Shown piece after piece: positions 4,734 through 7,078 of a stretch of DNA of 40,781 bases. A program made the translations under genes and the position numbers. Every line of letters begins with the position of its first letter. Position 1 is the first letter of the stretch. The notes under the pieces were generated by a model. The model saw nothing but the letters and a program-made list of their open reading frames with translations, ran no database searches and was not told the DNA's origin. The DNA comes from a virus: UHGV virus genome UHGV-0177491. One strand, given 5' to 3'.

Positions 4734-5399
4734 ATGAATGAGTTAATTACTACGCAGCACGACGAAACCATCAATAGCCAAACACTATTGAAGATGGTTA
4801 ATGAGGCGCGGAGATTGTGCGGAGAAAAACCGGTCCGCAACAATGATTTTATTGCCAAGGTTAAGGATGAGCTGGATGGGGAGGCTTACGAAATTTTCGT
4901 AACCCCCATGGATAAGACAAAAGGTGGCGCGGATCAGGTGACTATTGTCATGAGCTACAAACAAGCCATGAGAGTGGCGGCTCGCGAGTCAAAAGCTGTC
5001 CGTCGTTCGCTGATTGACCAGCTGGAGACAATGCGGCAAAGCGCGGCTAAGTCGACATTTCCTGTACCGCAAACAATGGGTGAGGCGTTGCGACTGGCCG
5101 CCGACCTCTGGGAAGAGAAAGAAAGACTGAAACTGATTCTTCAACAGACTGTGAGATATTACGATGTTCTGCGCGTGGTTAAGGCTAATCCAGACTTTGG
5201 GCTTGATGCCAAGAATCTGTGGCGACCACTCAAGAGCTGGTGTGTTGAGGCTAACGTGGAGGTTAAAAGAGTCTTCTGTCCTCGCTACGGCAGTGTAAAT
5301 GCTTACCCTTACGAAGCGTGGCGCGCTGTTTACCCTGCACTCGAGCTTCCTCGAGAGGCTGCTACTCTGCTGGAGAATATGGAGCGTAAGGATGAATGA
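4734..5399 (+). CDS. Hypothetical protein with antirepressor-like linker motif
   Basis: 221 aa. Contains FPVPQTxxEALxxAxxxxEEKERL, shared with the linker of the 30738..31427 antirepressor-like protein. Confidence 0.45.
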   Translation: MNELITTQHDETINSQTLLKMVNEARRLCGEKPVRNNDFIAKVKDELDGEAYEIFVTPMDKTKGGADQVTIVMSYKQAMRVAARESKAVRRSLIDQLETMRQSAAKSTFPVPQTMGEALRLAADLWEEKERLKLILQQTVRYYDVLRVVKANPDFGLDAKNLWRPLKSWCVEANVEVKRVFCPRYGSVNAYPYEAWRAVYPALELPREAATLLENMERKDE

Positions 5400-5670
5400 T
5401 TATTTAAAACCTCCGTCGCCACCGCGAACAAAAGAGCAGGTTCTAAAAGAAGCCCGTGATCAAATCGAGCGCGGTTTTTTTATTGCTGGTAGTTCTGATG
5501 AACGGATGACGAAAAGATTTAGTGATCTGTACGCAAAGCAAATATGGCTCGACAACTGGCAAGCAAGTTTTTACCCACTGCAAAGAAAACAGGATATGCA
5601 GTGGCCTGAATATATCGACCCGCGCCTGCGTAATTACCGCTCACGCTATGGCGCTATCAGTAATGACTGA
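5392..5670 (+). CDS. Hypothetical protein (92 aa)
   Basis: ATG at 5392 overlaps the stop of the upstream gene (translational coupling). Track ORF begins at 5299. Confidence 0.45.
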
Positions 5671-5680
5671 GGAATTTACC

Positions 5681-5845
5681 ATGAGAGGACTTGCATACAA
5701 TCCCGGCATTCTTCCGGCAGAAATGATTATTCGCCAACGCGTAAAGCCAATGCCATCGAGAGAGGAATTGCTTAAAAGAAATAGTTTCGGTTCTGTTAAT
5801 GACAACAAATATCTGAATGCGATGTTGCGGAGTGGGAAAAAATGA
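5681..5845 (+). CDS. Hypothetical small protein (54 aa)
   Basis: ATG at 5681 preceded by GAGG; its stop overlaps the next start in an ATGA arrangement. Confidence 0.35.
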
Positions 5846-6432
5846 AACAAATGACACTAATTGAGATGGATGGTTTTCTGAAAGGTAAATGCATCCCACG
5901 AGATTTAAAGGTTAACGAAACAAACGCTGAATATCTGGTGCGTAAATTTGCTGAAGCGGAGGCCAAGATTTCAGCTCTATCCGAAGACCACCAGAAAGCG
6001 ATTGAGTCAATTAAGCAGGCTGATGCGGCTGTTAAGTTGGCACACGAGAAGTTTTCGGCGCCGGCGGCGGAGAATGCTGGGCTGAAATCTGATACTCCAC
6101 TTGGTGCCATCGAGAATGGCAGAGCGTTTGCAGACCGTTTAGAGAATTACCAGTTCGAGTGTGAAGGCGGAAACCTAAACATGTGCAGTGATTGGCAGGA
6201 GTTTCGCCGTTGCTTCGAGTACTTATCTGAATGGGCAATGCATAGCCAGACAGAGCACCCAGCCACCGATGCTTTCCTGGCTGAAGTACGGGCGCAGGCG
6301 CTTAATGACCTTTGCTCGGCGTTCGTTAAGGGCGCGACGGCTGCCGGGCTGGACGATGGCTATACCGTAACGCTTAAGGAAGTGACAGAAGCATTGTTGC
6401 ATTATGCGGAACAGATTCGCGCGCCTGAATAA
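5842..6432 (+). CDS. Hypothetical protein (196 aa)
   Basis: ATG at 5842 coupled to the upstream gene. No domain recognised. Confidence 0.5.
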
Positions 6433-6482
6433 TTAAATTTAGTGTTGTAAATAAAATCTAATCCTTAACCGGAGGTATATCT

Positions 6483-6695
6483 ATGTTAAATACACAGAAA
6501 ACCATTAATGCGGAAAAATATAACGAGTGGGTGAGGAAATTTTCTGAGCAGATTTTTAAAATTACTGGCGACGAGAATGCGGCAAAAAATGAATTAGAGC
6601 CGTGGACACCTGAAGGAGCCGACCCAAATTATTGCTGGTGGGATGTTGATCCAGTTGATGCTGCAAATGAAGCTATGAGTTATCACAACGATTAA
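6483..6695 (+). CDS. Hypothetical acidic small protein (70 aa)
   Basis: GGAGG SD 7 nt upstream of ATG at 6483. Confidence 0.45.
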   Translation: MLNTQKTINAEKYNEWVRKFSEQIFKITGDENAAKNELEPWTPEGADPNYCWWDVDPVDAANEAMSYHND

Positions 6696-6730
6696 TGTCA
6701 GGAGGCCGCCCGAAAGGGCGGTAATAAATA

Positions 6731-7078
6731 ATGCAAGAAACCAAAGAAAATATCAGAAAACAGCTTTACGGGTTTTATATTGCTTATGATTTGTGGTTGA
6801 GTAATGGGGCGAAACCAGGTGGGGTGTTTTCTCGAAATTATGGTTTATGCGCCAATCTTTTCGATTATCTCACATCAATCGGTACCTCCAGCGAAGCGGC
6901 ACTGGAACAATTACACGCTGATTTCAGAAGTGCCGGGCTGTATGAGGTGTTGCCATTTAACGAGAGTAATGGGCATTACCATGAAGAAAAAAGGAACAAC
7001 ATGTGCCATATGAACCCGTCGCGGGTGGCGTGGGTCAGGGCGCAGATGGTACAGGCAGTGCCGGACGGACTGGATTGA
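6731..7078 (+). CDS. Hypothetical protein (115 aa), last gene of the early-left operon
   Basis: ORF follows a GC hairpin (GCCGCCC-gaaa-GGGCGG); converges on the tailspike 3' end. Confidence 0.45.
   Translation: MQETKENIRKQLYGFYIAYDLWLSNGAKPGGVFSRNYGLCANLFDYLTSIGTSSEAALEQLHADFRSAGLYEVLPFNESNGHYHEEKRNNMCHMNPSRVAWVRAQMVQAVPDGLD

Follow-up and report, generated by a model that had tools for sequence, protein, structure and literature searches.

The five small genes that close the early-left operon of this phage (UHGV-0177491; the window below means the whole stretch analysed, 40,781 nucleotides) most probably, at a rough probability of 0.8, constitute an ordinary mosaic "ea" region, that is, the distal accessory part of the PL operon of a P22-like E. 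coli podovirus. Their content amounts to new alleles of known kinds, and the sole unexpected detail is a deletion scar in the last gene. We propose that the block consists of three separate pieces, namely abc2, which would form the end of the recombination module, a DUF2737-EaE pair, and the ORF4 and ORF5 cassettes, and that it would be transcribed by N-antiterminated read-through from PL.

As listed in Table 1, the five plus-strand ORFs of the original prediction (92, 54, 196, 70 and 115 aa) were all present, with the same number, coordinates and lengths. Each of them matched a phage protein family among the PHROG profiles (E about 1e-32 to 1e-51), and they are therefore real genes; the earlier statement that they belong to no recognisable family had to be given up. 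Antisense and alternative-frame ORFs across the region gave no matches. The remote-homology search recovered ORF1 to ORF3 as the abc2-orf56-eaE trio of P22 rather than as unrecognisable proteins, and for ORF1 to ORF5 no homology to structural or metabolic proteins was found. Structure prediction was unusable for ORF3 (AlphaFold2 with a 36-sequence alignment, pLDDT 47) and gave a low-confidence model for ORF5 (pLDDT 61).

Table 1. Features of the distal early-left block and its flanks (window coordinates)
Feature	Position	Strand	Family match or remark
Upstream 221-aa ORF (context, outside the finding)	4734-5399	+	stop overlaps abc2 start by 8 nt
ORF1, abc2; predicted Abc2 anti-RecBCD protein, 92 aa, mEp021-like subtype	5392-5670	+	phrog_656, PF11043, PDB 8b1t_A
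ORF2, DUF2737 protein, 54 aa, pI 10.7, P22 orf56 orthologue	5681-5845	+	PF10930
ORF3, EaE-family mosaic protein, 196 aa, predicted all-helical	5842-6432	+	phrog_614
Intergenic boundary, AT-rich (26% GC)	6433-6482	+	GGAGG Shine-Dalgarno for ORF4
ORF4, acidic 70-aa protein, pI 4.4, 39% GC, narrow family	6483-6695	+	phrog_4659
GAAA-loop hairpin, no U-tract, between ORF4 and ORF5	6705-6722	+	-16.3 kcal/mol, z -3.5
ORF5, 115 aa, N-terminal domain (about residues 1-107) of a 159-aa accessory protein	6731-7078	+	phrog_6418, phrog_2510
Recombination junction, 8-nt microhomology CGGACTGG	7066-7073		common to ORF5-family gene and integrase 3' end
IntS-type integrase gene remnant, last 29 nt (9 codons and TAA stop)	7066-7094	+	out of frame with ORF5
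Hairpin GGTGGC-GTAAT-GCCACC	7085-7101	-	followed by UUUUCAU on the minus strand
Tailspike gene, convergent with the block (context)	7141-9837	-	

The placement of the block at the distal end of an N-antiterminated early-left operon was confirmed. The operon runs N (365-709), cIII, kil, Erf and SSB and then the five genes; the Rad52/Erf-type annealase lies at 3454-4161 and SSB at 4162-4677, followed by the 221-aa ORF, for which we obtained a PHROGs resemblance to an anti-repressor or regulator and no Pfam match, and by abc2. An Rfam scan of 5392-7140 returned no RNA family, and a promoter and terminator scan returned nothing exceeding shuffled expectation. Overlapping stop and start codons, which had been ascribed to the block in general, were found at the 221-aa ORF/ORF1 junction (8-nt overlap, ATGAATGA) and at the ORF2/ORF3 junction (ATGA), and were absent elsewhere: ORF1 and ORF2 are separated by 10 nt that include GAGGA, ORF3 and ORF4 by 50 AT-rich nt with a GGAGG Shine-Dalgarno sequence, and ORF4 and ORF5 by 35 nt with a stable hairpin. 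GC content varies from 39% to 50% across the block.

These data bear on the idea that the five genes make up a single coupled island for anti-defence or host takeover, with products that cooperate in early infection. Such an island would fit the position of the block directly behind kil, cIII and the recombination genes of the early-left operon, the tight coupling from the 221-aa ORF through ORF3, the small size and strong charge of ORF2 and ORF4, and the presence of Abc2, which counters a host nuclease. However, the 50-nt and 35-nt gaps and the uneven GC content argue against it, as does the independent assortment of the pieces: the DUF2737-EaE pair is found without Abc2, and ORF4 and ORF5 occur one without the other and in places other than early-left operons. 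The claim of one five-gene coupled unit thus fails, ORF4 and ORF5 being independent cassettes that occur elsewhere in other contexts. Beyond Abc2, moreover, ORF1 to ORF5 matched no characterised anti-defence protein in Pfam, NCBIfam, PHROG annotations, the PDB or the literature, and we consider the island very unlikely. PADLOC-DB profiles gave no match for the 221-aa ORF, ORF1 to ORF5 or a full-length ORF5 homologue, NCBIfam gave no matches, and no PDB sequence was matched by ORF3, ORF4, ORF5 or the full-length ORF5 homologue.

Judged from its sequence, ORF1 encodes a divergent subtype of Abc2, the anti-RecBCD protein of P22 type, that is nearest to the mEp021 group (71-74% full-length identity to proteins of that group). 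It matched phrog_656 over residues 2-92 (E 5e-32) and 8b1t_A in a PDB sequence search, and it scored 27.5 bits against PF11043 (curated cut-off, 25 bits) in a match confined to C-terminal residues 56-92. The alignment showed that the conserved C-terminal motif RxRxYRxRxG is retained in residues 75-92, and that P62 aligns with P68 of P22 Abc2, the proposed PpiB site (PMC9836394). BLAST found no similarity between residues 1-55 and P22 Abc2; a multiple alignment via intermediate subtypes aligned the two proteins over their full length with few invariant positions (V17, L18, L46 and K49). In the model of the P22 Abc2 complex, the ordered residues 3-66 are the portion on RecC (PMC9836394), and RecC binding by the present allele is an extrapolation because its N-terminal ~55 residues are unlike P22 Abc2 by BLAST.

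By homology with the published mechanism (PMC9836394, PMC12315714), we infer that the present Abc2 would be active, binding the RecC subunit of host RecBCD and blocking the Chi response, and that Abc2-bound RecBCD would, rather than destroy phage DNA, act as a resection engine that supplies the phage annealase. The gene closes an Erf/SSB recombination module that lacks a phage exonuclease. A host-takeover or counter-defence role, predicted originally for the whole block, would accordingly hold for Abc2, one gene out of five, with RecBCD as its target; for ORF2 to ORF5 we found no support for an anti-defence role. Lambda Gam and T7 gp5.9 share with Abc2 this target and the general purpose (PMC9836394), but they act as DNA mimics, obstructing the DNA-binding site and abolishing every RecBCD activity. 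In the mEp021 group, the putative Abc2-like gene (e.g., mEp021_21, "putative anti-RecBCD protein") likewise lies downstream of an Erf-type recombinase and SSB; those phages differ in being about 54 kb, in not being classified in the genus Lederbergvirus, and in having no DUF2737/EaE pair after that gene.

The gene order found here also occurs after the Erf recombination module in the PL operon of P22 (NC_002371, 25,964-26,923), which reads erf-abc1-abc2-orf56-eaE. The likeness extends to the ~10-nt spacing between abc2 and orf56, the overlapping start of the next gene and the conserved Abc2 C-terminal motif. On the other hand, the N-terminal ~55 aa of Abc2 are not recognisably similar, the first ~65 aa of EaE differ, and the present phage has no abc1 or arf, with the 221-aa ORF and SSB in their place. 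Beyond eaE, P22 continues with orf45, eaF, eaD, eaI, eaA, eaG, eaC, xis and int, whereas here ORF4 and a truncated ORF5 follow and the block ends.

ORF2 matched PF10930 over 53/53 profile positions (E 4.9e-31) and is 75% identical to P22 orf56. ORF3, which is translationally coupled to it via the ATGA overlap, matched phrog_614 (E 3e-49) and aligned with P22 EaE by hhalign over 102 columns (probability 98.6%, E 1.4e-15), the N-terminal ~65 aa being different; its homologues, which form at least 7998 clusters, show a module-swapping pattern. We rejected ORF3 as a member of the Ea22 family, given that it had no PF13935 match and that hhalign against P22 EaD gave a probability of 0.2%; a Pfam scan of ORF3 and ORF5 returned no match at E ≤ 0.1, PF13935 included.

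A synteny survey covered 80 IMG/VR loci carrying DUF2737. The EaE N-module directly followed DUF2737, with the ATGA overlap, in 79 of the 80, Abc2 was upstream in 70, and the abc2-DUF2737 spacing was as here in 64; the 10 loci without Abc2 have a RecT-type module instead. A functional tie of DUF2737 to Abc2 was also rejected, as the DUF2737-EaE pair persists beside the RecT-type modules without Abc2. DUF2737 and the EaE-family protein make up a conserved, translationally coupled pair located right after the recombination module in P22-like phages, and our guess is that the pair may be a dispensable modulator of host physiology or early phage development. A literature search for DUF2737 and the PHROG identifiers found no papers. 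Separately, we observed that the DUF2737 peptide is very conserved and basic, and that ORF2 to ORF5 were kept by a lineage that appears to have lost lysogeny.

ORF4 matched phrog_4659 (E 3e-51). A search of 1.84 billion representative proteins returned 8 matches, among which two giant repetitive proteins were judged spurious after a Pfam scan, and the gene was present in 8 of 50,697 phage records, all of them STEC-associated phages. The protein is 91-93% identical to its homologues in distant phage backgrounds, and the same ~50 nt as at 6433-6482 follow Ea22-like genes in unrelated phages. Stx phage ArgO145 carries ORF4 without ORF5, between Ea22-like genes, a 92.8-kb E. coli plasmid carries ORF4 and ORF5 together (98.8% identity), and lambdoid prophages carry full-length ORF5 alone, amid replication and late-regulation genes. 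ORF4 and ORF5 are probably small accessory cassettes that move independently and stem from the lambdoid ea/nin gene pool. Note that the window holds 3 Chi sites, one of them within ORF4, against 1.1 expected, which is not significant.

Full-length homologues of ORF5 have 158-159 aa, and ORF5 lacks the C-module (PEGLVKAVRFYEQVK...) of these complete two-module proteins, a module common to Ead/Ea22-like proteins. A homology search restricted to the N-domain brought in no further diversity: the 31 proteins recovered all had at least 74% identity to the query over the aligned parts. Identity of ORF5 to the full-length genes ends at nt 7073, and its last codon and stop derive from the junction. The integrase remnant at 7066-7094 matches the 3' end of IME10 int and, with 100% identity, the end of intS in the TO6 prophage. 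In relatives, the same tailspike adjoins either an intact intS or 84 nt of residual intS with a lambda-type int-xis module behind it. In the present phage we found no int, xis or attP, and no integrase-sized ORF elsewhere in the window. At least 5 independent metagenome assemblies, each about 40.8 kb long, share the identical arrangement and an identical ORF5.

Recombination over the short homology CGGACTGG probably fused an ORF5-family gene, at its codon 114, to the final 29 nt of an IntS-type integrase gene, which would have left ORF5 with its N-domain only and the phage without xis, attP or a working int; the lineage seems incapable of lysogeny. Deletion and replacement cannot be told apart at the junction, as we found no ancestor in which a P22-like context combines full-length ORF5 with xis and int. 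The predicted convergence on a tailspike terminator was true in its geometry, the ORF5 stop lying at 7078 and the minus-strand tailspike stop at 7141. For the hairpin at 7085-7101, a U-run is present on the tailspike strand and absent from the plus strand. This structure, with which an integrase gene naturally ends and which the integrase and tailspike genes have in common, probably serves as the intrinsic terminator of late (tailspike) transcription, and it would act mainly on that opposing transcript.

The truncation raises the question of whether ORF4 and ORF5 are non-functional passenger DNA left by genome-building recombination. The C-terminal third of ORF5 is gone, the ORF4 family is very small, and a normally spaced Shine-Dalgarno sequence is missing from ORF5, as AGGAGG lies 25 nt upstream, immediately 5' of the intervening hairpin at 6705-6722, all of which would suit such a fate. 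However, both ORFs are intact, ORF5 recurs unchanged in the independent assemblies, and ORF4 is closely similar across distant backgrounds. In addition, the break in ORF5 falls after the conserved N-domain (1-107), where natural variants swap C-terminal modules, and natural proteins with the N-domain alone or with a short tail (123-134 aa) exist. We therefore judge passenger DNA to be unlikely.

The lambda exo-xis region (ea22, ea8.5, orf60a, orf61, orf63 and orf73) occupies the same PL operon slot and likewise comprises small early genes that are dispensable and highly mosaic. Roles in the lysis-lysogeny decision or the host cell cycle have been reported for Ea22, Orf63, Orf61 and others (PMC7093339, PMC10834534, PMC3824215), and ORF2 to ORF5 could be counterparts with such tuning functions, vestigial or repurposed in the absence of an integrase. 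Besides this literature, the map position between the recombination genes and the expected xis/int site, the Ead/Ea22-like nature of the C-module lost by ORF5 and the Ea22-like neighbours of ORF4 in ArgO145 are consistent with such roles. Yet ORF3 matches neither PF13935 nor P22 EaD, ORF2 to ORF5 show no sequence homology to characterised lambda exo-xis proteins, and the genes are kept by a lineage apparently unable to lysogenise, so that we regard these roles as possible but doubtful.

The mosaic ea region remains our preferred reading. It is tentatively conceivable, though rather improbable, that at least one of the DUF2737-EaE pair, ORF4 and the ORF5 N-domain is a new early host-takeover or counter-defence factor, and/or that mEp021-type Abc2 engages RecC or another target differently.

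For routine annotation, "five unknown genes" is corrected to abc2, homologues of P22 orf56 and eaE, and two accessory cassettes. The DUF2737-EaE pair, almost invariant and independent of Abc2, is an inexpensive target for a knock-out or defence-panel screen. The disordered C-terminus and the proline of the proposed PpiB site are retained in this Abc2 subtype, whereas the RecC-contacting half appears to be replaced; the subtype would thereby be a natural experiment on RecBCD recognition by Abc2. Finally, the junction preserves the way in which the integration module of a temperate P22-like phage was lost, and the lineage that came out of this loss is abundant in metagenomes.

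The window is a P22-like (Lederbergvirus-type) E. coli phage genome of ~40.7 kb, circularly assembled; nt 1-44 recur as nt 40738-40781, and the ENA contig ERZ1034882 NODE_154_length_40813 has the same coordinates as the window. The five ORFs ending the early-left operon were confirmed at the positions and lengths originally predicted. Each of them has a strong match to a phage protein family, and antisense and alternative-frame ORFs of the block region matched no family, indicating that the five ORFs are genuine genes. The original prediction was therefore wrong in calling all five unrecognisable. 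It had also described overlapping stop and start codons throughout. Such overlaps were observed between the preceding 221-aa ORF and ORF1 (8 nt) and between ORF2 and ORF3 (4 nt, ATGA), whereas ORF1/ORF2, ORF3/ORF4 and ORF4/ORF5 are spaced apart by 10 nt (containing GAGGA), 50 nt and 35 nt, respectively. A very stable hairpin with a GAAA loop (-16.3 kcal/mol, z -3.5) occupies the last of these gaps. Within the block, GC content ranges from 39% (ORF4) to 50% (ORF3), consistent with a mosaic origin, and the block as a whole is ordinary: a mosaic at the distal end of the early-left operon.

Features of the block and of the genome around it (window coordinates)
Feature	Position	Strand	Match or remark
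N	365-709	+	PF25694
DUF7446, DUF2528	after N, before cIII	+
cIII with thermoregulator RNA	RNA at 1847-1905	+	RF01804
kil, then two anti-repressor-like genes, then small recombination cofactor	between cIII and annealase	+
56-aa ORF	3275-3445	+	phrog_1723, annotated "recombinase"; just 5' of annealase gene
Rad52/Erf-type annealase	3454-4161	+
SSB	4162-4677	+
221-aa ORF	4734-5399	+	directly before block
ORF1, 92 aa	5392-5670	+	phrog_656
ORF2, 54 aa	5681-5845	+	DUF2737
ORF3, 196 aa	5842-6432	+	phrog_614
ORF4, 70 aa	6483-6695	+	phrog_4659 (sole family match)
GAAA-loop hairpin	6705-6722		before ORF5
ORF5, 115 aa	6731-7078	+	N-domain only
Hairpin	7085-7101		U-run after it on - strand only
Tailspike gene	7141-9837	-	convergent with block
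HNH_3 + AP2 homing-endonuclease-like ORF	9851-10354	+	adjoins tailspike start
HTH_36 duplicate, 84 aa	39581-39835		copy of initiator's N-terminal domain
cro-like HTH_3 gene	40129-40344	-

On sequence grounds, ORF1 is assigned as Abc2. Along its entire length it matched phrog_656 ("abc2 anti-RecBCD"; E 5e-32); it also matched the solved P22 Abc2 chain 8b1t_A, and its score against Pfam PF11043 was barely over threshold. BLAST against P22 Abc2 found similarity only in the last 37 residues (51% identity); a family alignment via intermediate subtypes aligned ORF1 over the whole protein, conserving the C-terminal RxRxYRxRxG and placing P62 at P22 P68, which has been proposed as the PpiB site. Among deposited phages, those of the mEp021 group have the most similar proteins (71-74% identity); with the type of Stx phages and JEP4, identity falls to 42%. 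P22 Abc2 is thought to make RecBCD a Chi-blind resection machine serving the phage annealase (PMC9836394, PMC12315714), and the original guess of a host-takeover or anti-defence function was right for Abc2, whose described role is in counter-defence and recombination. P22 Abc2 residues 3-66, which are ordered on RecC in the complex, are the stretch that differs in ORF1, so that RecC binding by the window's Abc2 is putative.

ORF2 and ORF3 likewise correspond, as judged from their profiles, to the P22 orf56-eaE pair. ORF2 covers the full DUF2737 profile (E 5e-31) and is 75% identical to P22 orf56; the ORF3 profile matched P22 EaE with 98.6% probability (E 1.4e-15), and the P22 map has the same order, erf-abc1-abc2-orf56-eaE. 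The ORF3 profile does not align with that of P22 EaD. Of 80 sampled IMG/VR loci with DUF2737, 79 had the EaE N-module directly behind it, the start overlapping. Abc2 lay upstream in 70 (with the same 10-nt spacer in 64 and a DUF5405 gene inserted in 6), and the remaining 10 had a RecT-type module and no Abc2, indicating that the tight unit is DUF2737 and EaE, not Abc2 and DUF2737. P22-type Abc2 was present in 69 of the 80; the window's Abc2 scored best at one only, a cut-off locus with the conserved C-terminal gene end alone. Homologues of ORF3 form at least 7998 clusters from enterobacterial prophages, and the family alignment shows blocks swapped among members and joined at short conserved motifs, among them AEQLRKGG and one with AALAAENAx.

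ORF4 and ORF5 are independent, rare cassettes. For ORF4 (pI 4.4), 1.84 billion representative proteins yielded 8 relatives, 2 of them spurious repeat proteins. Of 50,697 phage records, 8 carry it, STEC-associated in every case; in the early-left region of Stx phage ArgO145, Ea22-like genes flank it. A 92.8-kb E. coli plasmid contains a segment 98.8% identical to window 6425-7073; on this plasmid a 159-aa form of ORF5 comes after ORF4. Homologues of full-length ORF5 are also found on their own in lambdoid prophages, amid genes for replication and late regulation. The ORF5 family is modular, with a conserved N-domain (~residues 1-107) and varying C-terminal modules, including a ~50-aa one common to Ead/Ea22-like proteins and a DUF551-type; some natural members consist of just the N-domain or of the N-domain plus a short tail.

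The start of plasmid identity at nt 6425 places the left cassette boundary within the last ORF3 codons (6418-6432), at a conserved motif. The ORF3 C-terminus reads AEQIRAPE versus AEQLRKGGNQ in most homologues. The AT-rich 50 nt at 6433-6482 (26% GC) has 86-94% identical copies in unrelated phages, including E. coli siphoviruses and an Actinobacillus phage, where it immediately follows an Ea22-like gene, and appears to be a conserved linker or boundary between modules. Before ORF5, AGGAGG lies just 5' of the hairpin, 25 nt ahead of the start codon; the hairpin, if folded, would set this Shine-Dalgarno at normal spacing, so that 6700-6731 is a possible structure-bridged ribosome-binding site. 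The plasmid homologue has kept this element.

The event through which the integration module was lost also truncated ORF5. Identity with the full-length gene stops at nt 7073, and from nt 7066 on the window is 100% identical to the intS 3' end, intergenic hairpin and tailspike 3' end of an E. coli prophage ordered tRNA-Arg, intS, tailspike; the IME10 integrase 3' end likewise matches at the scar. The crossover thus falls within the shared octamer CGGACTGG (7066-7073), in a ~36-nt stretch that the two parents share in similar but non-identical form. Of the integrase gene, 29 nt remain (7066-7094), with the TAA stop in the loop of the second hairpin. That hairpin looks like the tailspike terminator, not that of the early-left operon. 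Other relatives with the same tailspike have an 84-nt intS remnant, then attP and a lambda-type int-xis module, indicating that this end of the tailspike module is a recurrent recombination site.

No integrase-sized ORF was found anywhere in the window. Lacking a cI-type repressor, int, xis and attP, the lineage appears to descend from a temperate phage and to have become non-lysogenic, although it has kept cIII. Between the cro-like gene and N there is no cI-type repressor ORF; in its place are a 207-nt stretch (40577-40781) that duplicates, at 97% identity, a central part of the replication-initiator gene (39044-39250), a second 22-nt iteron-like repeat array (40730-40781 plus 1-77; first array, 39204-39282) and the 84-aa HTH_36 duplicate (39581-39835). 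The same truncated ORF5 beside the tailspike was found in at least 5 separate metagenome assemblies, indicating that the integrase-less lineage circulates widely; the near-identical ~40.8-kb contigs are from ENA (ERZ1034882, ERZ1034773, ERZ1034763, ERZ19634781) and Logan (SRR7658635), one at 295x coverage. One of them, L010, differs upstream and is without the HNH gene, which suggests a mobile insertion.

Elsewhere, a 278-nt inverted repeat (91% identity, 2931-3208 versus 30742-31019) joins an early-left anti-repressor-like gene (2541-3212) and a - strand gene (30738-31472), which are paralogous ANT/Rha-type domains in two operons. Near the annealase, the 56-aa ORF may be a counterpart of Gp33 from the recombination locus of HK75, which is reported in a 2026 preprint to be sufficient to trigger P2 OLD defence.

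Structure prediction gave no usable models (pLDDT 47 for ORF3 and 61 for ORF5), and fold searches gave either no significant match or just uncharacterised phage proteins. PADLOC, NCBIfam, PDB sequence and literature searches, in libraries not specific to anti-defence, were negative for an anti-defence role of the block proteins other than Abc2. In P22-family genome papers, most early-left genes are without known function. DUF2737 and EaE are a conserved pair, present in P22 too, and are among the most useful subjects for follow-up, together with the divergent N-terminal half of the window's Abc2.
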